Assembly: GCA_035462175.1 (NCBI GenBank)
Contig: DATHUP010000025.1
Span: forward strand, 12,447 to 76,446
From: Acidimicrobiia bacterium
GTDB taxonomy: Bacteria; Actinomycetota; Acidimicrobiia; Spongiisociales; ZC4RG35
Length of the DNA: 64,000 nt
Reading direction: 5' to 3'
Within the stretch, counting starts at the first letter, position 1. Every line of letters begins with the position of its first letter. The notes under the pieces were generated by a model. It made no database searches and was not told where the DNA came from. It saw only the letters and a list, made by a program, of their open reading frames with translations. The translations under genes and the position numbers were made by a program. Below are positions 26,246-48,138 of this stretch, piece after piece.

Positions 26246-26698
26246 TCACTCTCCCTGCAGATCGGCGATCAGTGCCTTCATCTCGTCGATCTCTCGACGC
26301 TGGGATTCGATGATCTCATCGGCGAGCTCTCTGACTCTCGGGTCCGAGATCTCGGCCCTTTCGCTGGTCAGGATGGCGATCGAGTGGTGAGGGATCATGG
26401 CCCTCATGTATGAAACGTCCTGGACCGTCTCCTGGCTTCTCGCCAGGAACAACCCCCCGGCGACGACCACCGCGGCCCCGATGACGATGCCCACATTGGT
26501 CTTGTTGTTCGGGTACATCTTCCACATGAACCCCAACATCACGATCGCCATGACGGCCCCCATGTACAGCGCCATGTAGGACCTGGTCTCGCTCCATGTC
26601 ACGTGATCGAGCGCATAGACCGTGGAGTACATCAGACCGAACATGATCACGGTTGCCGTTCCGATCATGGCCGCGAAACGGCCGTAGGACATCTTCAT
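26246..26698 (-). CDS. DUF305-family protein with an N-terminal membrane domain
   Basis: MKMSYGRFAAMIGTATVIMFGL.. gives three TM segments. This is followed by MIPHHSIAILTSERAEISDPRVRELADEIIESQRREIDEMK, with the DUF305 HH motif. Confidence 0.7.
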   Translation of the reverse strand: MKMSYGRFAAMIGTATVIMFGLMYSTVYALDHVTWSETRSYMALYMGAVMAIVMLGFMWKMYPNNKTNVGIVIGAAVVVAGGLFLARSQETVQDVSYMRAMIPHHSIAILTSERAEISDPRVRELADEIIESQRREIDEMKALIADLQGE

Positions 26699-26789
26699 GG
26701 TTTCCCTTTCGTCAGCTCTCCCTGGCCCCATACCCTGATGTCCGCGCGGGCACACATCCGAGACCGGCCACGTACCGGCCTCGACCTCG

Positions 26790-27920
26790 CTAGAAGCGGG
26801 TGATGGCGACGAAGACGTGACCGTCGACCGGTGTCTCCGTGGTGGCTACCGGTGCGCCGGTGAGCATCGCGTGAACGGCAAGGCGGTCGAGGAGATCGAC
26901 GTCGAAGACCTCTTGTTCGTCGTGAAAGGTCACGTCGAGGTTGGAGGGGTCGAACCGGCCCCAGATCGGAGAGGCCTCCCGATGGATCAACAGGCGAGAC
27001 ACCCGGCCGGACACGGCCGCGATGAGACCTTCGGTGAGTTCGGTGATGGCGTTCCCGGTTCCGAGTTGCTCGCGAGCTAGCCCCAAATGCGTTCCGTGCT
27101 CCACGGCTTCGTGGTCCTCAACCACCTCGGCCGCCTTCTCTTGGACCTCCCTGACGTCGTCGACGTCGCCGATTCCGCTGTTCGGGGGAGAGATCATCTC
27201 GTGGTCATGGACGTTCTCGAAGTGGGCCACGAGATTGTCGTCGCCTAGCACGACCAGAGGCCGCAGGGGATCGGCTTCGGGCAGCCCGGCGCTGACTGCG
27301 CGCAGGAACCGATCCAGATCCTCGCCCTCGGAGGCCGACGGATCGTGGCCGTGGCGGGATCGTTTCGAACCGGCGCGGTCGGCATGTTGCTGACGTTGCT
27401 TCTCACGATCGACGAACCAGTTGACATCGTCTACGGACTTGGGCAGATCGGCGTCCACCGGGTAGGCGTCATGGCTGGATGCCGAATACAGCCGCACGCC
27501 GTGTCGGGTGAGGACCAAGACCGGGAGCCGGGTTGGCTCGATCGAGGGGATGGTGGGACGGAGATGGAAAGATGCCGCCAGGACTGCGCGTTTCTCGACC
27601 GGACCGGTCAGCGCCACCGGCGTCGGCTCGCCCTCGTCGTCGATGAGGACGGCGAGCCCAGGTCTCTGGTGCTCCCAGAATTCCTGGTCGTCGAGAAGAG
27701 CGTGGGCCACCTCGAGACGCTCTTCTCTCACCCGGGGCTTCCAGCCGACATCCTCCAGCCACCTGTCAACCTGGGCGATTCCGTTCTTCAGCAAGATCCG
27801 GCTCTGATCGATCTCGGCCCCCCTGACAGGGGTGGGCAGGTATATCGAGATCAATGCCTCGCCGCTCGCCGCGGCGAGGCGATCGAAGAGCTCGCGGTCG
27901 GGTTGGGTTGGTCTAGTCAC
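26790..27920 (-). CDS. bacterial archaeo-eukaryotic release-factor-like protein (baeRF3/baeRF7-like, eRF1/Pelota-related)
   Basis: 376 aa. ISIYLPTPVRGAEIDQSRILLKNGI..LLDDQEFWEHQRPGLAVLI..VLVLTRHGVRLY matches my recollection of baeRF-family N-terminal and central regions. Confidence 0.55.
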   Translation of the reverse strand: MTRPTQPDRELFDRLAAASGEALISIYLPTPVRGAEIDQSRILLKNGIAQVDRWLEDVGWKPRVREERLEVAHALLDDQEFWEHQRPGLAVLIDDEGEPTPVALTGPVEKRAVLAASFHLRPTIPSIEPTRLPVLVLTRHGVRLYSASSHDAYPVDADLPKSVDDVNWFVDREKQRQQHADRAGSKRSRHGHDPSASEGEDLDRFLRAVSAGLPEADPLRPLVVLGDDNLVAHFENVHDHEMISPPNSGIGDVDDVREVQEKAAEVVEDHEAVEHGTHLGLAREQLGTGNAITELTEGLIAAVSGRVSRLLIHREASPIWGRFDPSNLDVTFHDEQEVFDVDLLDRLAVHAMLTGAPVATTETPVDGHVFVAITRF

Positions 27921-29521: not shown

Positions 29522-29740
29522 TCAAGAGCGGTCTGATGATGCCAACCGGCGGCCGCTCAACACCGCCGCCAGGGACCCGAAAGCCAGTGCGGTTGCCATG
29601 GCAACCACCGGGCCCACCGGTTCCTCCCAGATCATCTCGGCCACTCGCGCTCCGACCAGCCAGGTGACCATGAACACCAGCAGACCGATGCCGATCCCGG
29701 TGACCCGGGCGGCGATCACCTCCGCCGTCCTAATACTCAC
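29522..29740 (-). CDS. small membrane protein (72 aa)
   Basis: The GTG start overlaps the upstream stop (GTGA). Two TM segments (VTGIGIGLLVFMVTWLVGA, VVAMATALAFGSLAAVL). Confidence 0.45.
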   Translation of the reverse strand: MSIRTAEVIAARVTGIGIGLLVFMVTWLVGARVAEMIWEEPVGPVVAMATALAFGSLAAVLSGRRLASSDRS

Positions 29741-30117
29741 GCGAAGGCGAGAAAGACCGGTGGGAAGGTCAATATCCCACCCAAGACGCCGAGGACCACC
29801 CCGATCCAAAAGACCCGCTTGATGTCCATCTCCTTGCCCCGCCAGATTGCGGCAAGGATGAGCCAGGCGATCAGCCAGGCGATGACGGCGACGATCGTCT
29901 TGCCGGCGAGTGGACCGACACCCCGTCCCATCTCGAAGGACTGCAGCCAATCGTGCAGGCCCTCTGAGACCTCGTTGAGGGTGGTCATGAGACCGAGGAC
30001 GAAGATGCCGATCCCGGCGGCGAGCATCGCCGCCGCACCCGGACCGTCGGGCTTGGCGGGGAGATGCAGCCTCTCGAGCTCGGGGGCTATCCGCTCATCG
30101 TGATGAATGTCGGCCAT
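29737..30117 (-). CDS. hypothetical membrane protein (126 aa)
   Basis: ATG 30117 (MADIHHDERIAPELE..), followed by 4 predicted TM segments. It lies 10 nt downstream of the preceding membrane-protein gene. Confidence 0.5.
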   Translation of the reverse strand: MADIHHDERIAPELERLHLPAKPDGPGAAAMLAAGIGIFVLGLMTTLNEVSEGLHDWLQSFEMGRGVGPLAGKTIVAVIAWLIAWLILAAIWRGKEMDIKRVFWIGVVLGVLGGILTFPPVFLAFA

Positions 30118-30127
30118 GACACCTCTC

Positions 30128-30703
30128 CTAGACGATCGGGGCGACCTTGTTGAGGAAGGCACCAAATGCCCCTCCAACAACAGCGGCGCCGAATGCGGCG
30201 ACAAACATGACGATGACGGCGGTCCGCAACCACGGGCGAGCCATCAGCCTTGGCCCGTAGTACGTGACCAGGAAAGCCGCGGCGGTGGCGAGAATCGGGG
30301 CCGCCCAACCAACATGTTCCTTCCACTCCATACCCAGCTCATGCCAGGTCTCGGTTTGCCCGGAGACATCAGACAACAGGAATTCGCGGGGGGAGCAGGT
30401 CTCGTTGGGGAGGATGGCCCCGGCACAACCGGCATATCGGTCATCGCCGACCTCTGACAGGTTGGCCCGGTACCACGGATATACGATCCACGTGCCCGTG
30501 ATGACCGTCGCCCATGCCGCCCCGGCCATGACCCAGATTCCCCAGTAGAGACGTTTCATCCTCTCTTGGATCCCGGCTGTCGTGATCAAACCCGGGCGTA
30601 GGCTCCACAGCCCGGCTAGACCACCGGCGAAGGCCAACAGGAAAAGGGTCCCCAAAACCAGACCGTGGATCACGGTCCATGCCTCTCGTGTGCTGAGTTC
30701 CAT
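30128..30703 (-). CDS. hypothetical membrane protein with a Cys pair in an external loop
   Basis: 191 aa with 4-5 TM segments. The loop is YAGCAGAILPNETCSPREF. A GGAGAAGAGG SD lies upstream. Confidence 0.55.
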   Translation of the reverse strand: MELSTREAWTVIHGLVLGTLFLLAFAGGLAGLWSLRPGLITTAGIQERMKRLYWGIWVMAGAAWATVITGTWIVYPWYRANLSEVGDDRYAGCAGAILPNETCSPREFLLSDVSGQTETWHELGMEWKEHVGWAAPILATAAAFLVTYYGPRLMARPWLRTAVIVMFVAAFGAAVVGGAFGAFLNKVAPIV

Positions 30704-30935: not shown

Positions 30936-32432
30936 TCACGCGTTTCGTGCTGCGGCGGTCCGGTGGAAGACGGCAGCTGCGGCGACGGTGATGCCTACCA
31001 ACCAGCCCAATGCCAAGAGCAGACCAGTGGTTTCGTCGAAGCCCGGTGTGAAGGCGCCGTCGATGAGGACTCGGACCGTGCCGTGGGCCGGCATCCATGC
31101 CGCCCACGGCGGGGGAGCGGCGTCGAACATGACGTTCTGGGCGAGGCCGACGTCGAGGAAGGGCAACAGGAACATCAGGTAGAGCCCCCCGAGCCGCCCG
31201 ACGAGAGGGCCGATGACGACGCCGATCATGGCGTAGGTGACCGCCACGGCGAACGTGGCCAGGACGAAGGTGAGCCACACCTGTGGCTGGAAGCTCCCTA
31301 CATAGACCGCCACTGAGACGACGGCGGTGACGATGGCGGCCGCCAGGGTGATCACTCCGAGTCGGGCGGCGAGGACTTCACCCGGTCGAAAACCGGCGAG
31401 GACCAGGCGGCGGTCCCCTTCCGCAGATCCGAGCACGACGAACAGGCCCGCCAGCCCGGCGAGGAAGGCCACCGTGATCGGGACCATGATGGCGCCGTGG
31501 ACGTCGATCATGGACAGGATGGAGATCGTGCGGACACCGTTCTCGACGAGCTCCACCGGAGCGGGATCATCGGGTGTGACCGCGAGCGATAGCGAGATGA
31601 AGAACAAGGGGAGGCCGATCAGCAGTACCCAGAGTGCGGTATTGCGCCGGTATTCGCGCCAGGCAAAGCGGAGTCCGGTTCGAACCCGGGCCCACGCACC
31701 GACGACGCGACGGGGACGGCCGGAGCCGGCGGGACGGGTGGTGGAGAAGAGAGCGACCACCGCCACTGCCAGCGCTCCGAAGGTCCAGGCGAGGGAAGCC
31801 CCGAGATCGCCGAGCGGGCCGGCGTGAGTGGTGGTCGCGTCCAGCATGACCTGGGTCGGAAAGTGGGCCGGGAAGAAACGGATGATGAGTGACTCGGTGC
31901 GTCCCATGGCGGGGCCGAGGAATACATCGAACATCCAGATGAAGATGATGATCAGCGACCCGTTGACCTCGGAGCGAACCAGGGCTCCGACGGCGACTCC
32001 GATCGCCAGGTAGATGAGGGCGAACATGGCTGTGGCCCCGACGGCACGACCCACGTCGACCAGGTCGGTACGGACCGCGAGGGCGGTCAACGCTCCGACT
32101 GAGGCGACGGCTGCCAAGGCCAGGGAGGAACTCACCCGCGCCGCCACCACCTTGGCGGTGGCGGCGCCTGCCGCAGCCAGGCGCCGGTCGGGTTCCCTCG
32201 ACCCGGTGACGTGGAAGAACCCGGCCACTCCGGCGAGGAATGCCGCAGCCCAGCCGGCGGTTGCGGCCTCCAACTGACCGAAACTGGCTTCCCCCCCGAG
32301 GATGCGGGCGAAGTCTGCAATGGCGCCCGCCGACAGAGCCACGAATACGACCGGGACCACCGCCAACAGGACCAGATTCAACGGTCTCCGGGCGTACTCA
32401 TTGAGATAGCGGCGTGTGAGCAGGGTGGTCAT
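30936..32432 (-). CDS. ABC-2-type transporter permease
   Basis: 498 aa, very hydrophobic, about 12 TM segments. Its start overlaps the ATPase stop by 4 nt. Confidence 0.7.
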   Translation of the reverse strand: MTTLLTRRYLNEYARRPLNLVLLAVVPVVFVALSAGAIADFARILGGEASFGQLEAATAGWAAAFLAGVAGFFHVTGSREPDRRLAAAGAATAKVVAARVSSSLALAAVASVGALTALAVRTDLVDVGRAVGATAMFALIYLAIGVAVGALVRSEVNGSLIIIFIWMFDVFLGPAMGRTESLIIRFFPAHFPTQVMLDATTTHAGPLGDLGASLAWTFGALAVAVVALFSTTRPAGSGRPRRVVGAWARVRTGLRFAWREYRRNTALWVLLIGLPLFFISLSLAVTPDDPAPVELVENGVRTISILSMIDVHGAIMVPITVAFLAGLAGLFVVLGSAEGDRRLVLAGFRPGEVLAARLGVITLAAAIVTAVVSVAVYVGSFQPQVWLTFVLATFAVAVTYAMIGVVIGPLVGRLGGLYLMFLLPFLDVGLAQNVMFDAAPPPWAAWMPAHGTVRVLIDGAFTPGFDETTGLLLALGWLVGITVAAAAVFHRTAAARNA

Positions 32433-33172
32433 CTTGGCACCGCCTTGCCCTCGACCAGGTCATAGATGCGGTCGAATCGTTCTGCGTCGGTGATGAAGTG
32501 GCTGATGATCAGAAGGCTCCGCCCGGCGTCACGCCGCTCTCTGGTGAGCTGCCAGAACCGCTGGTAGGTATCCCAGTCGAACCCGGCGTAAGGCTCGTCG
32601 AGCAACAGCAGGTCGGGGTCGGGCAAAAGAGCCAGTCCGAGATTCAGTTTGGCCTTGGTCCCTCCCGACAATTCCTCGACCCGCGAGTCACGCCATTCGG
32701 CGAATCCGAGAGTTCGGTAGATGTGATCTCGAGCGCTGTCGACGTCGATCTCGTTCATGCCGTACGCCCTGCCGAAGAGCTGGAAGTGCTCGTCACAGGT
32801 CAGACGCTCGTAAAGGATCGGCTCTTGAGGGCAGTACCCGACCGAGCCGGACTTGGATACGGTGCCGCCATCGCGTTCGATCCCGCCGACCAGGATCTTC
32901 ATCAGGGTCGACTTTCCCGAGCCGTTCTCACCGACCAGTCCCACGATCTCCCCGGATCGCAGTCTCAGATCGGCACCGCGGAGCACGTCGAGACGTCGTC
33001 GTCTTGGCCAGACCCCCCTCGTATAGGTCTTGATGATTCCGGTGGCGTCGAGCACGTCGGTCGCGGCGTCGCCACCCAGATGTCTGCCGGTGGACTCGAC
33101 GTCGAGATCCTCTGAGAGTGGGAGGCTGCCCACCGTCGGTGCGCTCGATTCTGTCGTTGGTGGGTGCATCAT
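32429..33172 (-). CDS. ABC transporter ATP-binding protein
   Basis: GENGSGKST (Walker A), LSGGTKAKL (signature), LLLLDEPYAGFD (Walker B). Confidence 0.85.
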   Translation of the reverse strand: MMHPPTTESSAPTVGSLPLSEDLDVESTGRHLGGDAATDVLDATGIIKTYTRGVWPRRRRLDVLRGADLRLRSGEIVGLVGENGSGKSTLMKILVGGIERDGGTVSKSGSVGYCPQEPILYERLTCDEHFQLFGRAYGMNEIDVDSARDHIYRTLGFAEWRDSRVEELSGGTKAKLNLGLALLPDPDLLLLDEPYAGFDWDTYQRFWQLTRERRDAGRSLLIISHFITDAERFDRIYDLVEGKAVPR

Positions 33173-33205: not shown

Positions 33206-33237
33206 AACCTACGCCTTCCAGCCGACTGGAAGGTCAA
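33206..33237 (-). promoter_or_regulatory. MerR-type promoter-operator, copy A (drives the ABC exporter operon)
   Basis: Minus strand reads TTGACC-TTCCAGTCGGCTGGAAGGCG-TAGGTT, with a 20-bp spacer. The palindrome has one central mismatch. The ATG at 33172 lies about 27 nt downstream of the predicted TSS and has a GGAAAGAGG SD. Confidence 0.65.
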
Positions 33238-33427
33238 TAGGGTCGAAAGTCCCGGAGAGCGGCCCGCGGGGATCTATCTGCGTGACGTGGACGCAGAGCT
33301 CGTCGAAAACCGGGGCTCCGCGCTCACCAGCTGCTCAGTGGCCATGTTCTCCCAACGTCCGCCCGTCCGAGCCACCCCGGGATCGCGTTGTGTCTCGGCG
33401 TCCGTCAACCGTCGCGCAACTACAAGA

Positions 33428-33841
33428 TCACGATTCAGAAGCGTGCTCGCTCAGTGCGTCCACCACACGCTGCAATCGCACCAGGGCTTCGCTGGCCACA
33501 TGCTCCAAAGCTGGGTTGTTGGTCAGGCTGACCATCGTCGAAGGGTCGAGCACCGCAACCACGGTGCTCGTGCCGTCCTCATACACCACGACGTTGCAGG
33601 GCAGCAACAGGCCCACGTCTGCCTCTTTCTCCAAGGCTTCGGCAGCGAGGTGGGGGTTGCACGCTCCCAGGATGCGGTAGGGGCCCCGGGTCAGACCAAG
33701 CTTCGCTCGTAGGGTCTCGGCGACATCGATCTCGGTCAGGATTCCGAAACCCTCGTTGGTCAGAAGCTCTCTGACTCTGGCCTCCGCGGCCACCACGTCG
33801 AGGGTTGTCCTCGTCTTCAATCCGTATGCTGGCTGTGCCAA
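33428..33841 (-). CDS. DUF302-family protein
   Basis: 137 aa. LLTNEGFGILTEIDVAETLRAKLG..YRILGACNPHLA..LLPCNVVVYE matches DUF302. Confidence 0.75.
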   Translation of the reverse strand: MAQPAYGLKTRTTLDVVAAEARVRELLTNEGFGILTEIDVAETLRAKLGLTRGPYRILGACNPHLAAEALEKEADVGLLLPCNVVVYEDGTSTVVAVLDPSTMVSLTNNPALEHVASEALVRLQRVVDALSEHASES

Positions 33842-34089
33842 TGCGATTCCTCCTCAGCGGCTGCCGTGCGGCCGCTCAGACGCTCGGTCTCATGTTCGGC
33901 TCGTCGGTCGAACCACAGCATCATCATCACCATGCCAAGACATATCGCCAAGGCGAGACCGATGATGACACGGGGGATACTGCCGTCGAGCCGGAACAGA
34001 GCGATGGCACCGGCGGTCATCACCACCACTCCGACCCAAATCCAGAACAGGCCGGTCGGTCCAGACGCGAGGCGTTCGGTGGATCTCAC
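33817..34089 (-). CDS. small two-TM membrane protein with a His-containing tail (90 aa); not resolved by the ORF track
   Basis: The GTG at 34089 overlaps the cupredoxin stop (GTGA). Sequence: VRSTERLASGPTGLFWIWVGVVVMTAGAIALF..VIIGLALAICLGMVMMMLWF..EEESHWHSQHTD. Confidence 0.5.
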   Translation of the reverse strand: MRSTERLASGPTGLFWIWVGVVVMTAGAIALFRLDGSIPRVIIGLALAICLGMVMMMLWFDRRAEHETERLSGRTAAAEEESHWHSQHTD

Positions 34090-34457
34090 GACACCACCAC
34101 TTTGCCCCGAAGCATTCCCATCTGGCAGGCGAACTCGAAGACGCCGGCTTTGTCCGGCGTGAACTCGATGGGCACATTGGAGCCCTGGGGCAGCTCGGCA
34201 GAGACACCGAAGGTGTCGAAGACGACCCGCTCCGAGCAGGGGTCGGCCTCCTGGCGGTTGAAGATCAGCCGCACCGGCCGTCCCGCGCTGACCCTGATCG
34301 TGTCCGGGCTGTATCCACCTTTGACAACGACGAAAGCCTCCTGGGTCCCATCGCTGGTGACACCGGCGACGGTCCCTGTTGGCTTGGAGAGCCAGAAGTA
34401 CCAGACGATCAGTCCGATCAGGGCCAGGCCCCCCAGATTGACCAATACGACGTCCAT
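34086..34457 (-). CDS. membrane-anchored cupredoxin-like domain protein
   Basis: 123 aa. An N-terminal TM segment, then a cupredoxin_1-like core (VVVKGGYSPDTIRVSAGRPVRLIF..GVFEFACQMGMLRGKVVV). Its start overlaps the copA stop (TGATG). Confidence 0.7.
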   Translation of the reverse strand: MDVVLVNLGGLALIGLIVWYFWLSKPTGTVAGVTSDGTQEAFVVVKGGYSPDTIRVSAGRPVRLIFNRQEADPCSERVVFDTFGVSAELPQGSNVPIEFTPDKAGVFEFACQMGMLRGKVVVS

Positions 34458-36928
34458 CAGGAAACCTCCTCACGGTGGGTGGGTTTGAAGCGGCGGAGCC
34501 GATTGGCATTGGTGACCACGGTGACCGAGGAGAACGCCATGGCCGCCCCGGCGATCAGCGGGGAAAGCAGGATTCCCAGGGCCGGGTAGAGCACACCGGC
34601 CGCAACCGGAATGCCCAGGGTGTTGTAAGCGAACGCGCCCACCAGGTTCTGGTGGATGTTGCGCATCGTCGCCTGGGAAAGCTCGATGGCGGTGGCCACT
34701 CCGGTGAGCGACCCCTTGACCAGAGTGATGTCGCCCGACTCCATGGCGACGTCCGTGCCGGTGCCCATGGCCAGACCGACGTCGGCCTGGGCGAGAGCGG
34801 GGGCGTCGTTGATCCCGTCACCGACCATGGCCACCACCTTTCCTTCGGCTTGGAGGAGCTTGATCTGGGTCGCCTTCTCGTCGGGGAGCACTTCGGCCAG
34901 CACTCGATCGATTCCCACGCTTCGGGCGATGGCGGCTGCTGTGCGGTGGTTGTCCCCGGTGAGCATGACTACCTCCAAGCCGAGACGGTGAAGCCGGGCG
35001 ATGGCTTCGATCGAGTCGTCCTTGAGGGTGTCGGCGACCGCCACCGCCCCGGCGGGCTCGCCGTCGACGGCGATGACCATCGCAGTCTTCCCTTGTTCGG
35101 CAAGCGACTCGAGCTGGGACTCGGCAGGCCCGGCCGCGATTCCCCGATCGGCCATCAGCTTCAGAGTCCCCAGAACGACGTTGCGGCCGTCGACTCGGGC
35201 TTCGATCCCGTGGCCCGGCACCGCCGAGAACTGGTCGGGATCACTCAAGGCAAGCTCACGGTCGAGTGCAGCTCGTACGATCGCCTCTCCGAGTGGATGC
35301 TCCGAACCTCTTTCGGCGGAGGCGGCCAGCCGCAGGACTTCGTCTTCGGTGTAGCCCTCAAAGGCAGTGATATCGGTCAGGGACGGTTCACCGCGGGTGA
35401 TGGTGCCGGTCTTGTCCACCACAACCGTGTCGATACGGTGGGCAGTCTCCAGGGCGTCACCGGAGCGGATCAAGATCCCGTTCTCGGCGCCCTTCCCGAT
35501 CCCCACCATCAGCGAGGTCGGTGTGGCCAGACCGAGGGCGCAGGGGCAGGCGATCACCAGCACAGTGACCATCGTGATCACCGCGTACACGAGGGCCGGA
35601 GAAGGGCCGAAGGTGTACCAGGTCATGAAGGTGGCCACGGCCACGATCATCACCGCGGGGACGAAATACCCCGACACCTTGTCGACGGTGCGCTGGATCG
35701 GAGCTTTGGAGCCCTGGGCGTCGCGAACCATGCGAATGATCTGAGCCAGCATCGTCTCCTTGCCTACCCGGGTGGCCCGGAATCGGAAGGTGCCGGTGCG
35801 ATTGATGGTTGCTCCGATCACGGTGGCGCCTTCACCCTTCTCCACCGGGATCGGTTCCCCGGTGACCATCGATTCGTCCACGGCAGACGACCCTGAGACC
35901 ACCTGGCCGTCCACCGGGACCTTTTCCCCAGGGCGGACCACCACCACGTCCCCAACCACAACCTCATTCACCGGGATGTCGACCTCGCTCCCGTCACGTA
36001 CCACGCGGGCGGTTTTGGCCTGGAGACCGATCAACTTTTTCATCGCCTCCGAAGTGCGGGCCCGGGCGCGCAGTTCGAGCGCCGTACCCAACACCACCAG
36101 GGCGGTCACCACTGCGGTCACGTCATAAAAGACATCACGCAGCATCTCGTCGGGGAAGAACCCAGGGAATACGACCGCCGCCGTGGAGTACAACCAGGCG
36201 GCGGAGATCCCGGTGGCGATCAGGGTGTGCATATTCGCCGAGCGGTGTTTGAGAGCGCCCCACGCCCCCGTGAAGAACTGCGATCCGGACCAGGCCAGCA
36301 CCGGCAGGGTGAGAACACCCATCGCCAGCCAGATCCACCACAACGCAGTCGAACCCTTCGCCGGTATTCCGGGGAAGACCTCCGGATAGGAGAAGTAGAT
36401 CACCGGCAATGACACGATGGCAGCGAACCAGAACTTACGCATCAGCAGCCGGTAGCGGCGCTCCGACTCGACCCGCTCGGTGTCCGAAGTGTCGACGTCC
36501 CCTTCGATCGCCTCCGCCTGATAGCCGGCGCTGGCCACGGCCTCGGTCAGCACCGAGGCCGGCACCTCGTGGGCGGTGTCCACGGTGGCGGTGTTGGCAG
36601 CGAAGTTGACCCGGGCGTCGATCACCCCCGGTACCGCGCTCAAGGCGGTCTCCACCGTCGACACACACGAGCCGCAGGTCATTCCGCTCACGGACAGGTG
36701 GATGGCCCCGATCACTTCGGTTCGAGCGGAGGGAGGCTGGGCTGTGTCGTCAGTAGACGTGGCTGCCGTGTAACGCTCCGGGTCGGCCAAGAAGCTGCCT
36801 CGGCAGTGCTCCGAGCAGAACCCGAGCTCTGGATGCCCATCCGCGCGCAGCGCGGTGGAGCTCACCCTCATCCCACACACCGGATCACTGAGCTCGACGT
36901 CCTTCGATTTCGTGTTCATCACGTTCAT
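34457..36928 (-). CDS. copA: Cu(I)/Ag(I)-translocating P1B-1-type ATPase with N-terminal TRASH/YHS and HMA domains
   Basis: Starts at ATG 36928 ([26 protein letters not shown] = TRASH). GMTCGSCV is the HMA motif. Also present: [21 protein letters not shown], the YN-x4-P signature (AYNTLGIP) and the MxxSS signature (MAFSS). The track ORF extends to 37441, but that part is antisense to merR. Confidence 0.9.
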
Positions 36929-36934
36929 GTCGCC

Positions 36935-36966
36935 ACCGTACGCCTTCCAGTCGACTGGAATGTCAA
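36935..36966 (-). promoter_or_regulatory. MerR-type promoter-operator, copy B (PcopA, divergent from the regulator gene)
   Basis: Minus strand reads TTGACA-TTCCAGTCGACTGGAAGGCG-TACGGT. The copA ATG begins 7 nt after the -10, so the transcript is probably leaderless. On the + strand, TAAGAT (36971-36976) lies 6 nt before the merR ATG. Confidence 0.75.
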
Positions 36967-36982
36967 GGGGTAAGATGAACTC

Positions 36983-37444
36983 ATGAGAATTGGAGAACTG
37001 GCTAGACGCACCGGCGTGCCCACCAAGACGATCCGCTATTACGAAGAGGTCGGGGTGCTGCCCGCCCCGGAACGGTCGGCCAACGACTACCGCGACTATC
37101 CAGAAGAGGCCGTCGATCGTCTCGGGTTCGTGCGCGACGCCCAGGCCACGGGTCTCACCCTGGCCGAGATCGCCTCCATACTTGACCTTCGTGGCCAGGG
37201 TGAGGCCACTTGCCATCACGTCATCGAACTGCTCGAGGGTCACCTGACCGCCCTCGATCGACACATCCAGACCTTGCGTGAGACACGTAAGAAGTTGACC
37301 GCCCTCACCGAGCAGGCTCGAAGTCTCGACCCCTCCGAGTGTCGCGATCCCAACCGGTGTCAGACCATCACCGGAGAGATGAAGTTGAAGACCCGACATG
37401 GGGGACAGCACCTCCACACCGCTCCGGTAGGCCATAACCACTGA
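36983..37444 (+). CDS. MerR-family heavy-metal-responsive transcriptional regulator
   Basis: [26 protein letters not shown] is the HTH. Candidate metal ligands are Cys77-His78-His79 and Cys120-x5-Cys126, plus a His-rich tail ([15 protein letters not shown]). Confidence 0.9.
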
Positions 37445-37486
37445 ACAGGTCCATGGTGAGCTCGTAGTCGATTAGCGACGGGCATG

Positions 37487-37518
37487 TTGACATTCCAGTC
37501 GACTGGAAGCTGTACGGT
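37487..37518 (+). promoter_or_regulatory. MerR-type promoter-operator, copy C (drives the dehydrogenase gene)
   Basis: Plus strand reads TTGACA-TTCCAGTCGACTGGAAGCTG-TACGGT. It lies 43 nt after the merR stop and 35 nt before ATG 37553. Confidence 0.7.
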
Positions 37519-37552
37519 GACCAGGAAGGCCTCACCGAGAAGAGACGAAGCG

Positions 37553-38935
37553 ATGGGAAGTCTCAGAGCCATACCCGACATGACGACGACCATCCAGAAC
37601 GATTCGGTGCCGGTGAGCCCAGCAGTGACCCGGCCGGAAGGGGAACGCTGCCGGAACTCGCTGCACTCTCACGGCAACCCGCCGGTCACGTCCGAGGGTG
37701 GGGGTCTGCTCGATTGGGAAGCGGAGAGATTTCAGCGGGCCGCGCACCGGCTCGGGCTCGAACCAGCCTTGACCTGTGCCTTGCATTGCGCCAACCGGTC
37801 GGTGGAGGTGGAGATCCCCCTGAGACGGGACGATGGCAATCTCGAGGTCTATTCGGGCTATCGGGTGCAGCATTCCCGCGCTTTGGGCCCGGCCAAAGGC
37901 GGACTCCGTTATCACCCTTCGGTCACCGCCGGTGAGGTGACCGCCCTGGCCCGGTTGATGACCTGGAAGACCGCGCTGGCCGGGCTGCCTTTCGGCGGCG
38001 GCAAGGGCGGCATCCCGTGCGACCCGGGCAGTTTCTCAAAGGGGGAGCTGCGACGGCTCACATATGCCTACACCGAGGGAATCCTGCCTGTGATTGGCCC
38101 CGACACCGATGTGGTCGCCCCCGATGTCGGTACGGGTCCCGAGACGATGGGCTGGATCCTGGCTGCGGCCCACCAGGCCGGACAGGGCGACCCTCGGCTG
38201 GTCACCGGCAAGCCGGAGAATCTCGGCGGCAATCGCTTCCGAGCCAAGGCGACCGGTGTAGGCGTCGCCCATCTCGCCGAACTTGCCTACCACCACATCG
38301 GCGGCAGAGTGGATCGAGCGCGGGTGGCAGTGGAAGGCTTCGGGTCGGTGGGCCGCTGGGCCGCCCTGGAGCTCGCGGAACGGGGCGCCAGCATCGTCGC
38401 CGTGGCCGACGTGAGCGGCAGCATCTACTCCCCATACGGCCTCGACGTTTCATCCCTGATCGACTGGACAGCCGGGGGCGGCCCCCTGCTGGGGTACCCA
38501 AAGGCGAACATCTCCGAGGCGAGCGTCCTCGAGACTCCCTGTGACATCGTCATCGCCGCCGCCATGGAAGGAACCCTCACCACTGCGGTCGCTTCCCGGG
38601 TCACCGCCCGTCTGGTGGTGGAAGGGGCCAACGGACCCACCACCCCCCAAGCCGAAACCAGGCTTCATGAGTTGGGTGTCTCCGTGGTCCCTGACCTGGT
38701 CGCCAACGCCGGCGGGGTGATCTCGTCGTACTTCGAATGGGCCAATAGCCAACCGGGTCAGGCTTGGACCGAAGCCGAGGAAAGGCGCCGGGTCCTGGAT
38801 CGTCTCGGCCACATGTGGAGTCTTGTCGCCAACGAGGAGCCGGGCCAGTGGCGTGTGTCGGCGTTGACCCAGGCGATCGTCAGGGTTGTTGACGGTATGA
38901 GGGCCGCGGGGATCATCCAGCGGGCTTCGGGTTGA
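37553..38935 (+). CDS. Glu/Leu/Phe/Val dehydrogenase family protein (glutamate dehydrogenase-like) with an N-terminal extension
   Basis: YSGYRVQHSRALGPAKGGLRYHP..MTWKTALAGLPFGGGKGGI is the catalytic Lys/Gly-rich motif. VAVEGFGSVGRWAA is the Rossmann motif. The start is uncertain (ATG 37553 or 37580). Confidence 0.85.
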   Translation: MGSLRAIPDMTTTIQNDSVPVSPAVTRPEGERCRNSLHSHGNPPVTSEGGGLLDWEAERFQRAAHRLGLEPALTCALHCANRSVEVEIPLRRDDGNLEVYSGYRVQHSRALGPAKGGLRYHPSVTAGEVTALARLMTWKTALAGLPFGGGKGGIPCDPGSFSKGELRRLTYAYTEGILPVIGPDTDVVAPDVGTGPETMGWILAAAHQAGQGDPRLVTGKPENLGGNRFRAKATGVGVAHLAELAYHHIGGRVDRARVAVEGFGSVGRWAALELAERGASIVAVADVSGSIYSPYGLDVSSLIDWTAGGGPLLGYPKANISEASVLETPCDIVIAAAMEGTLTTAVASRVTARLVVEGANGPTTPQAETRLHELGVSVVPDLVANAGGVISSYFEWANSQPGQAWTEAEERRRVLDRLGHMWSLVANEEPGQWRVSALTQAIVRVVDGMRAAGIIQRASG

Positions 38936-39086
38936 GCGCCCACCCGCGGCGGCGGGCACGGACGGGAGGATTGGAAGGGTGAGATCCTGATTCGACTTCC
39001 GATTCTAGGGTTGTTCGTAGCATCAGCTGCGGGGCTGACGTTTAGGGATCGGCGTCGACCAGGGCTCTGAGTTGGGGCAGCGGTGT

Positions 39087-39395
39087 TCAGCCACGGGCGA
39101 GCATCCGGTCGATCTGGGCCTGGTACTGCTCCTGGGCCCGAATCATGTCCGGGTCGACCCACATCGGATCGGCCTCGATCATGGTGTTCATCGAGGAATG
39201 GGCGGTGACCCGCATCCGTTCCAGCATCCTGATGTCTCCGTCGAGCATCTCGACCTCCCCCGACTCGGTCACCATGGGAGCACGGGAGGACGGCTGGGCC
39301 GAACCAGGTGTGAAGCTCCCGCTCAATGCCGCCGCGGTCACCAACACTGCGATGAAAAGGACCCAGCTGGCTGTCGCGATCTTGAGGAACCTCAT
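39087..39395 (-). CDS. small secreted Met-rich protein (102 aa), candidate Cu(I)-binding
   Basis: Signal-peptide-like N-terminus (MRFLKIATASWVLFIAVLVTAAALSG). The mature part has 9 Met in about 75 aa (PMVTESGEVEMLDGDIRMLERMRVTAHSSMNTMIEADPMWVDPDM). A GAAAGG SD is present. Confidence 0.65.
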   Translation of the reverse strand: MRFLKIATASWVLFIAVLVTAAALSGSFTPGSAQPSSRAPMVTESGEVEMLDGDIRMLERMRVTAHSSMNTMIEADPMWVDPDMIRAQEQYQAQIDRMLARG

Positions 39396-39422
39396 GACGA
39401 ACCTTTCTATGGCTCTGTTGCG

Positions 39423-39454
39423 ATCGTACGCCTTCCAGTCGACTGGAATGTCAA
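39423..39454 (-). promoter_or_regulatory. MerR-type promoter-operator, copy D (drives the Met-rich protein gene)
   Basis: Minus strand reads TTGACA-TTCCAGTCGACTGGAAGGCG-TACGAT. It is identical to copy B across the -35 and spacer. Confidence 0.7.
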
Positions 39455-39887: not shown

Positions 39888-40756
39888 TCAGGTCCTCGTC
39901 CCTTCTGTGGCTGCCAATGTTGCCATGGCGACCCCTTCGGTCGGGCTGCGACGTCCCAGTCTCCGGTACATGGCGATGCCAAACAACCCGGCAACCAGGC
40001 CGCTCAACTGGTTCCAGCTGAGCGGGCCGATGGCGGCGTCGCCGACCCGCAGGAAGTCGAGCAGGAAGCGTTGCAGCCCGTACCACGCCATCCACAGGGC
40101 GAAGAGTTGACCGTCTTGCATCGGGACGCGTCGTGCCCATACGACGAGAGCAATGAGCAAGACAGCGGCACCAATGAGGTCGTAAGCCGCCACCGGTTGA
40201 TAGACCCCGCACAGCCCGTCCGCTCTCGCCTGTGCCACGGTGCACTGGAGAGAGTTGTGTGCCGGGGCCACGCTGTACCCCGCCACCAACCCATAACCCC
40301 AGGGCAGCGATGTTGGTCTGCCCAGATGCTCAACTATTGCTAGACAGCCGAGTCTGCCGATCACGGTGCCCAGGGCGAGACCGTAGGTGGAGACATCGAG
40401 AGTGGGCAGGACAGGCATACCTAATGCCCTGATTCGCCACAGCCCGACCAGGATTCCGCCGGTGAATCCGCCGAGGATCGAGAAGTTCCCCGAAAGTGGG
40501 CTCAGCGCTGACCAGCCGGCGCCGTCCAACAAGGCGGCCGGGGCGGTGAGGTAGCGGCTCCGAGGAGGGCGCCCACCAAGGCCCAAGACACGACCGACTG
40601 GTACTTGTCCACGTCGCCGCCGGCTCGAGCGAGATGCCGTGAAGCCAGCCAGGCTCCGGCGAAGATACCGAGGGCGATGAAAAGCCCGTGGACCGACAGC
40701 TGGATCGGACCGAGATGGATAGGACCCAGCGGCGGGTAGGAAATCACAGCAATCAT
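39888..40756 (-). pseudogene. lgt: prolipoprotein diacylglyceryl transferase, split by an apparent 1-nt frameshift near 40555-40565
   Basis: The N-terminal 65 aa (MIAVISYPPLGPIHLGPIQLSVHGLFIALGIF..VSWALVGALLG) are in one frame. The remainder (SRYLTAPAAL..GNFSILGGFTGG..VIGRLGCLAIVEHLGRPTSLPWG) is in another frame, as track ORF 39888..40766. Confidence 0.7.
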
Positions 40757-40781
40757 GGACGTTCACGTACCGCGGGGTGGC

Positions 40782-41369
40782 TCACGTCCCCAGGGCGGCG
40801 TCGAGCTCATCGAGCAGCGACTCGGCGGGTACGAACATCTCGGCGTAGTGGCGAACCCAGGCGATCTCGCCGCTCTGCCTGACCAGGGCGAAGCTGTGGC
40901 TGGGTCGGTCGCCGTGGCCGTAGATACCGACCATGCCGTATGCGGCCGAGACTTCGGCTCCCGGATCGATGAGGATTGGACCGTCGATCCCGAACCTTGC
41001 CGCCTCGGCGGCGACCAAGGTTGCCGGGTCGATCATGATCGGGACCAGGCTCATTCCGCGTTCGGCCACCGCTGTGTCGAGCTCGGGGATCTGGGCGAAG
41101 CACCCGTCGCAGCCCACCCCCATGGAGAAGTAGAGGAGAGCGTCTCCTTGGGCGAGCGTCTCGTCGAGGGAAACGATCTGACCGTCGGCTGCGCTCAACT
41201 CGAACGGAATAGCCTGATCTATCTCGGCAGCGTCGGTCTCCGATAGGACGGACACGGCGACGAGCACCGCCAGAGCGAGGGGTGCGACGGCGAAGCCGAC
41301 CCACCTCCAGGGTGATCTCGGCCTGGGTTTGCGGCTACGCCCGCGTGGTGGCTGGATGGTCTTGGTCAT
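40782..41369 (-). CDS. membrane-anchored thioredoxin-fold redoxin (AhpC/TSA/TlpA-like)
   Basis: ATG 41369. An N-terminal TM anchor, then the CxxC motif in YFSMGVGCDGCFAQ. It is 25 nt upstream of lgt. Confidence 0.7.
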   Translation of the reverse strand: MTKTIQPPRGRSRKPRPRSPWRWVGFAVAPLALAVLVAVSVLSETDAAEIDQAIPFELSAADGQIVSLDETLAQGDALLYFSMGVGCDGCFAQIPELDTAVAERGMSLVPIMIDPATLVAAEAARFGIDGPILIDPGAEVSAAYGMVGIYGHGDRPSHSFALVRQSGEIAWVRHYAEMFVPAESLLDELDAALGT

Positions 41370-42258
41370 GACAGCTCCGTTCGTCTGTTTCTTCGTTCTC
41401 GAGGCGGCGATGCCGCCGCCGGGTCGACAATGCGATTGCGGCCAGTGCGACCGCGATGAGGAACAAGCCGATGACCGGGTCGGGGATCCAGGCAAGACCA
41501 TCGAGCACGGGAGTGAGGAACCCCTCGATTCCGGTGCCCAGGCTGGCGCTGAACGAGGGTGCCAGGGACGATCCTGTCACCGCAACAACCGCCAGCACGA
41601 CGGCCATGACCAGGAACATCACCGCCGCCACCAGACCGGCGGTAGTCGTCGCCACGCGCAGGAAACCCACATTGAAAGCCACCGGCCTGGACCCGATCTG
41701 GACCCGATCAGGCCCCAGTCGGTCCCAGAGCAGGGTGAGGATTATCAGCGGGAACACCATCCCGAACACGTAGGCCAACCCGATGCCGACCCCGGCGGCG
41801 ATGCCGGGCGACACTGCCGACAGCGTGAGGACGCCGGCGAGGACCGGGGCGCAACAGGCGCTGGCGGCACCCGAGAACACTCCGAGGGCAAAGATCCCGG
41901 CCGAGTCGGTTCGAGAGATGTCGGGGGATCCCCTGAGGAAGGGAAGTGACCAGGTGCCCCCGCTCAATGAGACGACTGCGAGTACGAGCAGGAGGGCGGC
42001 TCCGAGACCGTATACCGCGGTGTGATAGCGCAGCAGGCTCTCGGTGAGGAGGCTGAGCCCGAGTGTCACCGGGATCAGCACGAGGGCAACCCCGGCGGCG
42101 AACACGAATGCCAGCGGGACCAGACGCCAACGGTGATTGCGGACCGAAGCCGCCAGGAAGGCGGGGAACATCACGACTATGCAGCATGGAGCGAACAGAG
42201 CCACCGACCCGGCCACAAAGGCCGCGAGCAGGGATCCTCCGAGGAACAGACCTTCCAC
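41335..42258 (-). CDS. DsbD/CcdA-family transmembrane thiol-disulfide transporter-like protein with vicinal Cys-Cys motifs
   Basis: GTG 42258 lies 1 nt after the glutaredoxin-like stop. 6-8 TM segments. LFAPCCIVVMFP and GAASACCAPVLAG lie in TM helices. Confidence 0.65.
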   Translation of the reverse strand: MEGLFLGGSLLAAFVAGSVALFAPCCIVVMFPAFLAASVRNHRWRLVPLAFVFAAGVALVLIPVTLGLSLLTESLLRYHTAVYGLGAALLLVLAVVSLSGGTWSLPFLRGSPDISRTDSAGIFALGVFSGAASACCAPVLAGVLTLSAVSPGIAAGVGIGLAYVFGMVFPLIILTLLWDRLGPDRVQIGSRPVAFNVGFLRVATTTAGLVAAVMFLVMAVVLAVVAVTGSSLAPSFSASLGTGIEGFLTPVLDGLAWIPDPVIGLFLIAVALAAIALSTRRRHRRLENEETDERSCHDQDHPATTRA

Positions 42259-44443: not shown

Positions 44444-44530
44444 CCCGCCAGGTTAAGCCATGACATTCGCCTCTCCCGCCAGGACTCTGAAATGCGTCTC
44501 CGCCAACTGATAGTGGACACCGAGCCCCTG

Positions 44531-44890
44531 ATGGCGGTGCTGGGCGGAGGTTTGGTCGGATCTGCCGCCCGGGCCGGGATCGGCCAGGTCTTACCGACCG
44601 CGCCAGGTGCGTTTCCCGTCGCCACCTTGATGGTGAATCTCATCGGGTCGCTTTTCCTCGGCGTCTATCTCGCCCGCAGGGAACGCGCCGCGACGATCCG
44701 TTGGTCGCTTCAGTTCTGGGCGATCGGAGTGCTGGGATCGTTCACGACCTTCTCCGCCTTCAGCCTCGACGTCGTTCATCTCCTCGATGCCAATCGGCCA
44801 ATGCCGGCCCTCGGCTACGTGACTGCCTCCGTCATCGGAGGGCTGCTCCTCGCTCTGACCGGCCAAAGACTCGGCTCGAGCTTCCGATGA
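44531..44890 (+). CDS. crcB: fluoride channel CrcB/FluC, subunit 1
   Basis: MAVLGGGLVGSAARAGIG..ATLMVNLIGSLFLG..GVLGSFTTFSAFS. The track start at 44492 is probably too far upstream. Confidence 0.85.
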   Translation: MAVLGGGLVGSAARAGIGQVLPTAPGAFPVATLMVNLIGSLFLGVYLARRERAATIRWSLQFWAIGVLGSFTTFSAFSLDVVHLLDANRPMPALGYVTASVIGGLLLALTGQRLGSSFR

Positions 44891-45246: not shown

Positions 45247-45597
45247 ATGATGGACCAACAGTCAGACGCCCGGTTGCTCCGGATCTTCATCGGCGAGTCC
45301 GATACCTACGACGGACGCCCGCTCTATCAAGCCATCGTCGAGACTCTTCGGCGGGAGGGTCTGGCCGGAACCACGGTTCTCAGGGGAATCGAAGGTTTTG
45401 GCAAATCCAGCCGCCTCCACACCGCCCACATCCTTCGCCTCTCCGAGGACCTTCCCATCGTCATCGAATGCGTCGACACGGGCGACAAGGTCGAGGCCGT
45501 GCTCCCCGCCCTCGACGAGATGATCGGTGATGGCCTGGTCACCCTGGAACGAGTCGAAGTCCGCGTCTACCGGGCCGGTACAGACGACACCAGCTGA
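45247..45597 (+). CDS. DUF190-family (PII-like) protein commonly linked to crcB
   Basis: LLRIFIGESDTYDGRPLYQAIVETLRREGLAGTTVLRGIEGFG. Confidence 0.8.
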   Translation: MMDQQSDARLLRIFIGESDTYDGRPLYQAIVETLRREGLAGTTVLRGIEGFGKSSRLHTAHILRLSEDLPIVIECVDTGDKVEAVLPALDEMIGDGLVTLERVEVRVYRAGTDDTS

Positions 45598-47745: not shown

Positions 47746-48138
47746 ATGATCGACAACCATTTTCAGATTGGCGAGGTGGCCGAGAGCCTCGGCTTGTCGC
47801 TGCGCACCATCCGCTACTACGAGGAGATCGGCCTGGTCACTCCCTCGGGCCGGACCGAGGGCGGGTTCCGGCTGTACACCGACGCCGATATCGAGCGCTT
47901 GCGTTTGGTCAAGGCGTTGAAGCCCGTAGGGATGTCCTTGGGGACGTTGGGCGAGTTGATCGAATGCGTCGATCTTCTTCGCGACGGCGCCCCGGCCGAG
48001 GCCGGCGAGGCGGAGAGACGTCTCGAGGGTGTCATCGCCTTGGCTTTGGACCGCTGTGACCAGATGGAGGAGCTTCTCGGCGCGGCTCGGGACACCCTCA
48101 ATCGGCTCTCGGTCCGTGGAGCACGGGCGAGCCGATGA
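47746..48138 (+). CDS. MerR-family transcriptional regulator (no metal-binding Cys pair)
   Basis: FQIGEVAESLGLSLRTIRYYEEIGLVTPSGRTEGGFRLYTDADIERLRLVKAL. Confidence 0.85.
   Translation: MIDNHFQIGEVAESLGLSLRTIRYYEEIGLVTPSGRTEGGFRLYTDADIERLRLVKALKPVGMSLGTLGELIECVDLLRDGAPAEAGEAERRLEGVIALALDRCDQMEELLGAARDTLNRLSVRGARASR

Follow-up and report, generated by a model that had tools for sequence, protein, structure and literature searches.

The window analysed here, 64,000 nucleotides (64 kb) of the 92-kb contig DATHUP010000025.1, contains four near-identical 32-bp promoter-operators and, between two of them, a gene for a MerR-family regulator. Together, the four sites probably constitute one metal-responsive MerR-type regulon. 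Site A (33206-33237, minus strand; TTGACC-TTCCAGTCGGCTGGAA-GGCG-TAGGTT, with one central mismatch in the dyad) precedes an ABC-2 exporter. Site B (36935-36966, minus strand; TTGACA-TTCCAGTCGACTGGAA-GGCG-TACGGT) precedes the copA operon and overlaps the promoter of the divergent regulator gene, merR. Site C (37487-37518, plus strand; TTGACA-TTCCAGTCGACTGGAA-GCTG-TACGGT) is followed by a glutamate dehydrogenase (GDH) gene, and site D (39423-39454, minus strand; TTGACA-TTCCAGTCGACTGGAA-GGCG-TACGAT) by a gene for a Met-rich protein. All four copies fit the consensus TTGAC(A/C)-TTCCAGTCG(A/G)CTGGAA-N4-TAnnnT, with a spacer of 20 bp in each. An earlier note on this DNA had placed the elements at these coordinates, and both sequence reading and a 16-mer search find them there as described, to the base: in each of the four copies 20 bp separate the hexamers, and sites B and D are the same across the -35 hexamer and spacer.

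Searching the window with the 16-mer at up to three mismatches finds four copies where 0.45 would be expected, and four was not attained in any of 100 shuffles, which excludes chance; no fifth site occurs in the 64 kb even at up to four mismatches. The flanks outside the 32-mers are unrelated among the four copies, so that the conservation is promoter-sized and does not reflect copies of a longer repeat. GC content is uniform across the region, and neither an Rfam nor a tRNA scan of the window gave a match. The operator is a 22-bp inverted repeat, (A/C)C(A/C)TTCCAGTCGACTGGAAGG, with CueR-like ACCTTCC half-sites, and in all four sites its dyad is centred 8 bp downstream of the -35 hexamer, within the over-long spacer. 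The reading of these elements as MerR promoters, already made in the earlier note, is borne out by the position of the dyad between -35 and -10, the length of the spacer, the divergent regulator gene and the orientation of all four sites toward a gene. A generic sigma-70 scan, which allows spacers of 16-18 bp only, finds none of the four.

The regulator gene (36983-37444, plus strand) encodes 153 residues and, as had been noted, is divergent from site B, with its own promoter overlapping operator B. Its ATG lies 6 nt after a -10 hexamer, TAAGAT (36971-36976), on the strand opposite to site B; the merR mRNA is probably leaderless, and the overlap with operator B implies autoregulation, as in classical mer operons. 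The product matches the Pfam families MerR_1, MerR and MerR-DNA-bind. It comprises a MerR-type winged helix-turn-helix (residues 1-68; MerR_1 E 2e-19, MerR E 9e-16) and a dimerisation helix (MerR-DNA-bind PF09278, residues 44-108, E 1.6e-16), and carries C77, H78, H79, C120, C126 and a His-rich C-terminal tail. Residues 1-129 align with CadR and MerR structures, and the nearest solved structures by sequence are Bacillus MerR, CadR and PbrR, then CueR. Regulator homologues at 65-93% identity all come from metagenome-assembled genomes (MAGs) of Acidimicrobiia and from metagenomes.

In an alignment of 28 sequences (27 clade members at 67-87% identity and E. coli CueR), C120 is invariant and C77, H79 and C126 are at least 90% conserved. 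The tail motif HLHxAPxGHxH and the recognition-helix Lys, K15, are conserved as well. The regulator has the Cys ligands of the metal-sensing MerR subgroup, in the form of the C-terminal loop Cys and of C77 at the start of the dimerisation helix, the latter matching in alignment the additional Cys that MerR and CadR possess. On these features it is a metal-sensing MerR-type protein assignable to none of CueR, CadR, ZntR or MerR proper. Judged by the same residues, it represents a distinct, uncharacterised clade, in which C77, H79, the C-x5-C loop and the His tail match no characterised MerR-family sensor. A second MerR paralogue in the window (47746-48138) was rejected as the cognate regulator, being 32% identical, lacking the Cys loop and having Arg in place of K15; this 130-aa gene overlaps the start of prfC, encoding release factor RF3 (47746-49706 for the pair, plus strand). 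In relatives, the usual neighbours of merR form a redoxin / 307-aa / 92-aa / CsoR / SHOCT cluster, which was not found in the window.

The operator was searched for in other genomes with the pattern TTGACMTTCCAGTCGRCTGG, which covers positions 1-20 only, without the -10 hexamer, in one genome per species (185,579 species, 596 Gb). The pattern is present in 98 stretches, almost all of them with the operator upstream of copper-handling genes or beside a MerR homologue. The hosts are mostly Acidimicrobiia, and the remainder are other Actinomycetota, Armatimonadota, Chloroflexota, Trueperaceae and Gemmatimonadota. Complete Acidimicrobiales chromosomes with the site include OZ244195.1, OZ244202.1 and CBDCFR010000013.1. 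The census of sites that follows combines these 98 stretches with 12 loci reached through regulator homologues; loci from other genomes are designated by L-numbers, of which L002 and L003 are the same contig. Although the -10 hexamer was outside the search pattern, TAnnnT is found at the exact 20-bp spacing in 123 of 148 TTGAC-oriented sites. Of 120 unique sites, 36 have the start of a long open reading frame (ORF) exactly 6 nt downstream of the -10; such a sharp peak is expected of leaderless transcription and is independent evidence that the promoters are real.

The first gene after the operator encodes a CopA-type ATPase at 60 sites, a DUF302 protein heading a copA operon at 8, the orthologous ABC ATPase at 10 (including the window), the Met-rich protein at 6 (including the window) and a MerR paralogue at 4. 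Other first genes encode CopZ-like HMA proteins, a multicopper oxidase, thioredoxin/glutaredoxin-like, DsbD-like and IscA/HesB-like Fe-S proteins, an FAD oxidoreductase, DUF4396 and SHOCT proteins, and one protein with possible CopC/CopD-like sequence (by reading, not by Pfam). The co-occurrence of site and target in relatives, which the earlier note had left to a wider search, is positive for the exporter, the Met-rich protein and GDH. A TTGACC (A-type) site precedes the ABC ATPase orthologue in L002, L009, L013, L051, L071, L090, L100 and L109, and the orthologue stands behind the operator at nine further sites in all; L004 and L115 have the exporter fused into their copA gene string. The Met-rich homologue is found behind the operator in four further contigs (L002, L031, L062 and L100). 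When the upstream regions of orthologues are compared by footprinting, only the 32-mer is conserved. The presence and geometry of the sites, the identities of the genes behind them and the conservation of site and target across genomes are direct observations.

For the MerR regulator, copA, the ABC-2 exporter and the Glu/Leu/Phe/Val (ELFV) dehydrogenase, Pfam and NCBIfam agree with the identities proposed in the earlier note; the Met-rich protein has no family match. The copA gene (34457-36928, minus strand) encodes a Cu(I)-type P1B-1 ATPase with N-terminal YHS and HMA domains (Pfam). It passes the NCBIfam model TIGR01511 (ATPase-IB1_Cu) with 614 bits against a cut-off of 397, and scores only 414 with the Cd/Zn model TIGR01512; its best match is PRK10671 CopA. 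The translation contains the transmembrane motifs CPC, N-x6-YN-x4-P and M-x2-SS (the last belonging to P-x6-M-x2-SS-x5-N), which are marks of Cu specificity. The gene starts with an ATG 6 nt downstream of the site B -10, so placed that the copA mRNA is probably leaderless. Orthologues of site B occur in L004, L009, L011, L100, L106 and others.

The copA operon proposed earlier stands as regards copA itself, with the correction that it goes on with three further genes. The second gene (34086-34457, minus strand) encodes a cupredoxin-like protein (Pfam Cupredoxin_1, E 2.5e-20), and its synteny with copA is kept in L002, L004, L009, L011 and L100. It is followed by a gene for a 90-aa membrane protein (33817-34089, minus strand), whose GTG start overlaps the cupredoxin stop codon and whose homologues come after the cupredoxin gene in L060 and L106. 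The last gene (33428-33841, minus strand) encodes a DUF302 protein (Pfam, E 2e-24); in several relatives, the DUF302 gene is the first of the copA operon, directly after the operator. A 230-aa ORF (33817-34509, minus strand) was rejected as a gene by third-position GC content (GC3) and synteny, the true genes being those of the cupredoxin and the 90-aa membrane protein.

The exporter behind site A is formed by an ABC transporter ATPase (32429-33172, minus strand; Pfam ABC_tran), whose ATG lies 33 nt after the -10 of site A and is preceded by GGAAAGAGG, and a fused ABC-2 type permease of 498 aa (30936-32432, minus strand; Pfam ABC2_membrane_3). Permease orthologues with 78-80% identity follow the ATPase in L004, L009 and L109. 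Two membrane proteins further on (30128-30703 and 29737-30204) were rejected as parts of the regulon, being without homologues in any relative locus compared. Directly 5' of the TTGACC of site A lies the 16-mer GGGACTTTCGACCCTA (33238-33253, minus strand), which is also found in L002, L009, L051, L071, L100 and L109. It is restricted to exporter-type sites and absent from copA, GDH and Met-rich sites, and may be an UP-like element or the site of a second factor.

The gene behind site D (39087-39395, minus strand) encodes a membrane-anchored Met-rich protein of 102 aa that contains no Cys or His and matches no Pfam or NCBIfam family. The protein family comprises 30 clusters, all annotated as hypothetical, with eight conserved Met. 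An AlphaFold2 (AF2) model of the protein, of moderate confidence (pLDDT 75, pTM 0.30), consists of an N-terminal transmembrane helix, a disordered linker and a helical hairpin, the soluble domain being residues 43-102, and in this model the Met-rich hairpin would probably bind Cu(I) outside the cytoplasm. Just beyond site D (39888-41501, minus strand) are genes for the prolipoprotein diacylglyceryl transferase Lgt and a redoxin-family protein.

The gene behind site C (37553-38935, plus strand; alternative start 37580) has the Pfam domains ELFV_dehydrog_N and ELFV_dehydrog, corresponding to the ELFV dimerisation and NAD(P) domains, at E 1e-49 and 2e-54. The catalytic Lys in GGGKGG, the substrate Lys in GPxKGG and the GxGxxG motif are invariant in an alignment of the subfamily, and by domains and motifs the enzyme of the window is a glutamate dehydrogenase. 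It falls below the cut-off of the NCBIfam GDH equivalogs (364 vs 620), so the subfamily is divergent. Identity divides the homologues in two: this subfamily spans 52-92%, and ordinary GDHs do not exceed 48%. CALHC is present in all sampled subfamily members, and an N-terminal GERCRNSLHxH in members of at least about 60% identity; ordinary GDHs have neither. In the window enzyme these extra Cys/His motifs fall at residues ~36-90 (within 37553-37830), and the two could form a metal site.

Nine genomic contexts of the subfamily were sampled; a metagenome scan with the GDH query gave a single relative (L111), and the wider sampling was drawn from contigs that encode homologues. The operator lies directly upstream of GDH in the window (100% identity) and in L112 (72%), where a YHS gene follows. 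One short gene stands between operator and GDH in L111 (79%; a 48-aa Met-rich remnant), in L113/L114 (69%; a 100-aa gene, with YHS after GDH and merR-copA 3 kb away) and in L117 (67%; a Met-rich remnant, with an FAD oxidoreductase after GDH). In L035 (63%), the operator is merR-divergent and a 208-aa gene precedes GDH. In L115 (61%), GDH is the last gene of a copA-cupredoxin-methyltransferase-ABC-ABC2-GDH string, and in L118/L119 (69%) it is part of a YHS-GDH-CsoR operon without a MerR operator. The operator is thus upstream in six of the nine contexts, and GDH is copper-linked in eight, under two sensor types (MerR and CsoR). The GCTG of site C recurs in the operator ahead of the L111 GDH orthologue and in the one ahead of a Met-rich gene and GDH remnant in L100; decayed GDH fragments follow the Met-rich gene in L100 and L107. 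By its contexts, GDH is a recurrent but dispensable member of the regulon. The YHS-GDH-CsoR operon lies beside a serine recombinase (L118 1801-3712, L119 1766-3677), and the GDH of these loci is wired to a different copper sensor and may be mobile.

Binding, activation, the metal and the roles of GDH, the exporter and the Met-rich protein are what we infer from this arrangement. The four 32-mers would act as sigma-A type promoters with a 20-bp spacer too long for unaided firing, and a regulator dimer would sit constitutively on all four operators, by analogy with MerR, CueR and ZntR. Because the content of the regulon is copper-type, copper is the likely effector. Metal binding, most likely of Cu(I), would under-twist and kink the spacer and so bring the two hexamers into register for RNA polymerase. 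C120 and C126, together with C77 of the partner subunit, are the probable metal ligands. The first unit switched on would be copA-cupredoxin-small membrane protein-DUF302, as a leaderless mRNA, and jointly with it the ABC-2 exporter, the glutamate dehydrogenase and the membrane-anchored Met-rich protein would be induced. The leaderless promoter of merR, overlapping operator B, would place the regulator under its own control.

Excess copper is reported to damage the Fe-S glutamate synthase (GOGAT) in E. coli (Djoko 2017, as cited in PMC13618251). A tentative role for GDH would be to supply glutamate without Fe-S clusters when Cu(I) inactivates the Fe-S glutamate synthase, forming a GOGAT bypass; alternatively, its Cys/His N-terminus may bind copper directly. 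It is conceivable, if doubtful, that the enzyme is a dedicated copper-stress isozyme which restores glutamate synthesis, whose Cys/His N-terminus binds Cu to regulate or protect it, and which forms a damage-compensation arm with the ABC-2 exporter, the Met-rich protein and an EamA exporter encoded in L112. The IscA/HesB-like Fe-S protein and the thioredoxins found behind the operator elsewhere fit such an arm. In open-access papers, nothing relevant was found on GDH under MerR, CueR or CsoR control, or on copper regulation in Acidimicrobiia, nor did any account of such an arm come to light.

Several points weigh against a copper regulon of this composition. The source organism is an uncultured Acidimicrobiia MAG, and the GOGAT-bypass idea rests on E. 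coli physiology. The ninth GDH context, L116 (58% identity), has no operator within 5 kb, and the closest named relative contig (L062+L060, MerR 84% identical) is without GDH and has its Met-rich gene convergent with merR. The regulator scores below every NCBIfam metal-sensor equivalog cut-off (CadR-PbrR TIGR02047, 100.7 vs 151.5 bits; CueR TIGR02044, 85.8 vs 147.4; CueR PRK10227, 62.8 vs 244; MerR TIGR02051, 84.4 vs 150.9; ZntR TIGR02043, 72.5 vs 168.0). Its residues are not those of CueR: it has Cys at position 77 and a C120-x5-C126 loop, in place of the Ser77, C112-x7-C120 loop and linear S2 Cu(I) site reported for Cu(I)-specific CueR. A Cys at position 77 is reportedly characteristic of sensors that respond to divalent metals or mercury. 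The C-x5-C loop is unlike that of any characterised sensor, and the effector could be broader than Cu(I), or another metal.

These residues bear on the reading in which the adjacent MerR-family protein does use the sites as its operators but responds to something other than Cu(I), either one divalent or thiophilic metal (Hg, Cd, Zn, Pb) or several metals. By structure and sequence, Bacillus MerR, CadR and PbrR match the regulator better than CueR does, C77 corresponds to the extra Cys in MerR and CadR, the 22-bp site and 20-bp spacer are of MerR-type and not CueR-type geometry, and the central GTCGAC presumably occurs also in E. coli PzntA. Such an effector is nevertheless unlikely, given that the genes behind the operator are overwhelmingly copper-specific (P1B-1 ATPase by TIGR01511, cupredoxin, multicopper oxidase, CopZ-like, YHS), that the half-site ACCTTCC is the CueR half-site, and that a separate mercury-type MerR/merA pair with another dyad coexists in the relative L004. 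A sensor of redox or thiol stress like NmlR or SoxR, instead of a metal sensor, is also very improbable, the copper ATPase being by far the most frequent target. One homologue does bear the source name 'hypoxia response transcriptional regulator', the operator in other genomes also serves genes for thioredoxins, glutaredoxin-like and DsbD-like proteins, merR in relatives has peroxiredoxin genes in its vicinity, and the conserved Cys could be redox-active. However, the NmlR and SoxR models score below the metal-sensor models, and a Cys pair in the C-terminal loop together with C77 makes up the metal-site pattern known from MerR, CadR and PbrR.

Were only operator B functional, sites A, C and D would be leftovers or fortuitous promoter duplicates, and the genes behind them not co-regulated. 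The fluid gene order around merR (the closest named relative lacks GDH, which has decayed in L100 and L107) speaks for this, as does the GCTG that site C shares with the Met-rich site of L100, which suggests promoter capture by rearrangement. We consider it improbable: each pairing of site and target is found again in several genomes, where the 32-mer alone is kept amid diverged upstream DNA, TTGAC and TAnnnT are retained at exact spacing in all sites, and the GDH subfamily is copper-linked in all but one of its sampled contexts, including one under CsoR. The earlier note had also named a generic dispersed repeat as the reading that would undo its claim. Four copies within 6.3 kb, and the presence of the element in several phyla, are what a dispersed repeat or mobile-element end without regulatory function might look like. 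The scan of the 185,579 species genomes contradicts it, almost all the sites preceding copper-handling genes or lying beside a MerR homologue, and some 98 stretches in 596 Gb are far too few for a mobile repeat. Within the window, the unrelated flanks and uniform GC content argue in the same direction. When its 9.9-kb region was compared with plasmids, only short ATPase-gene fragments matched, with no sign of a known mobile island. The copies lie upstream of genes and point toward them, start codons fall where transcription is predicted to begin, and the dispersed-repeat reading is effectively refuted.

Among the closest known systems is the regulon of E. coli CueR (PcopA, PcueO), in which, as here, one dimer serves several promoters with over-long spacers and chiefly controls a Cu(I) P1B-1 ATPase. 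The two have the half-site ACCTTCC / GGAAGGT and a recognition-helix Lys (K15) in common. In contrast to CueR, the protein described here has C77 in place of S77, C-x5-C in place of C-x7-C, an effector-helix region about eight residues longer and a His-rich tail, and its targets include GDH, the ABC-2 exporter and the Met-rich protein, but not CueO. The sites also differ, having one base pair more between their half-sites: 22 bp, with a 20-bp spacer and the centre 8 bp from -35, compared with 21 bp, 19 bp and 7 bp for CueR, the size and centring of CueR sites being those given in PMC5045206. The same study (Korostelev et al. 2016, PMC5045206) describes MerR/HMRTR sites of 22 bp, centred 8 bp from -35, with 19-20-bp spacers, including in Actinobacteria, and an actinobacterial HMRTR branch with CueR-like Lys-base contacts to C/G at the half-site. 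Site geometry and K15 in the window agree with this description, and the regulator, judged by site geometry and Lys and not by CDD model, probably belongs to the HMRTR subfamily. That work covered complete genomes only, with 52 actinobacterial transcription factors (TFs) and no Acidimicrobiia MAGs, and kept sites beside the TF gene or heavy-metal-resistance genes (PMC5045206); GDH or ABC-2 targets would therefore have been discarded, and hence gone unreported. The term non-canonical, applied to this regulon in the earlier note, holds for the set of target genes and for the metal-site residues of the regulator, but not for the promoter architecture, which is the published MerR/HMRTR pattern.

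With MerR (Tn501, Bacillus megaterium), CadR and PbrR, the system shares a third Cys, the 22-bp site, the 19-20-bp spacer and a divergent gene with an overlapping promoter. It differs from them in its dyad, in its targets, which are of copper and not of mer, cad or pbr type, and in scores far below their cut-offs. The mercury-type paralogue site in L004 has the same -35/20-bp/-10 architecture with a different dyad, TTCAAGTGTACTTGAA, which suggests that dyad sequence alone separates mercury and copper circuits within one genome. The corresponding 139-aa MerR paralogue is divergent from an HMA-fused mercuric reductase in L004 (2860-2900) and L005 (1270-1310).

Extended regulons of the CueR/GolS type in Pseudomonas, Salmonella and other Proteobacteria comprise chaperones, periplasmic Cu-binding proteins and extra efflux systems, each with a MerR-type promoter. 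The present regulon is similar in having members beyond the ATPase, each behind its own MerR-type promoter; in the open-access literature, no report was found of a GDH or an ABC-2 exporter in such regulons. CsoR regulons of Actinobacteria and Firmicutes likewise provide a cytoplasmic Cu(I) response with copZA-type genes, and CsoR genes lie beside merR in several relatives. However, CsoR is a repressor released by Cu(I) and not a DNA-distorting activator, and no CsoR gene was found in the scanned part of the window.

While the switching mechanism is known MerR biology, the novelty lies in the conserved membership of the regulon: the conserved GDH subfamily, the ABC-2 exporter and the Met-rich family were not found as members of such a regulon in the open-access literature. 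A four-promoter copper regulon predicted from sequence alone survives comparison over ~100 genome stretches. If the link to GDH is physiological, it would be a natural, encoded example of copper toxicity acting via Fe-S enzymes of nitrogen assimilation. The regulator, the four operators and the enzyme are testable parts from an abundant but uncultured actinobacterial class, and the short, nearly invariant, phylum-spanning operator is a handy probe to mine metagenomes for copper regulons.

Elsewhere in the window, a gene for a DUF305 protein (26246-26755, minus strand) adjoins one for a baeRF family 3 (archaeo-eukaryotic release factor) protein (26790-27920, minus strand), with no operator nearby; the DUF305 family is often linked to copper. 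A CrcB fluoride channel gene (44492-44890, plus strand) lies near a DUF190 gene (45247-45597, plus strand), and no fluoride riboswitch was found by the Rfam scan. In other genomes, a 208-210-aa protein without a Pfam match is the first gene product after the operator in two phyla (L035 ~2700-3330, L023 ~790-1420). It has the motifs DVDVVAV and EVKRGEA, is possibly nuclease-like and precedes GDH in L035. A GAPDH-like protein of ~390 aa, with the Gp_dh_C domain only, is encoded directly upstream of a heavy-metal ATPase in L117 (3151-6724) and L112 (354-2581). In L117 this gene lies behind a second operator, placing another metabolic-looking gene in a copper neighbourhood.

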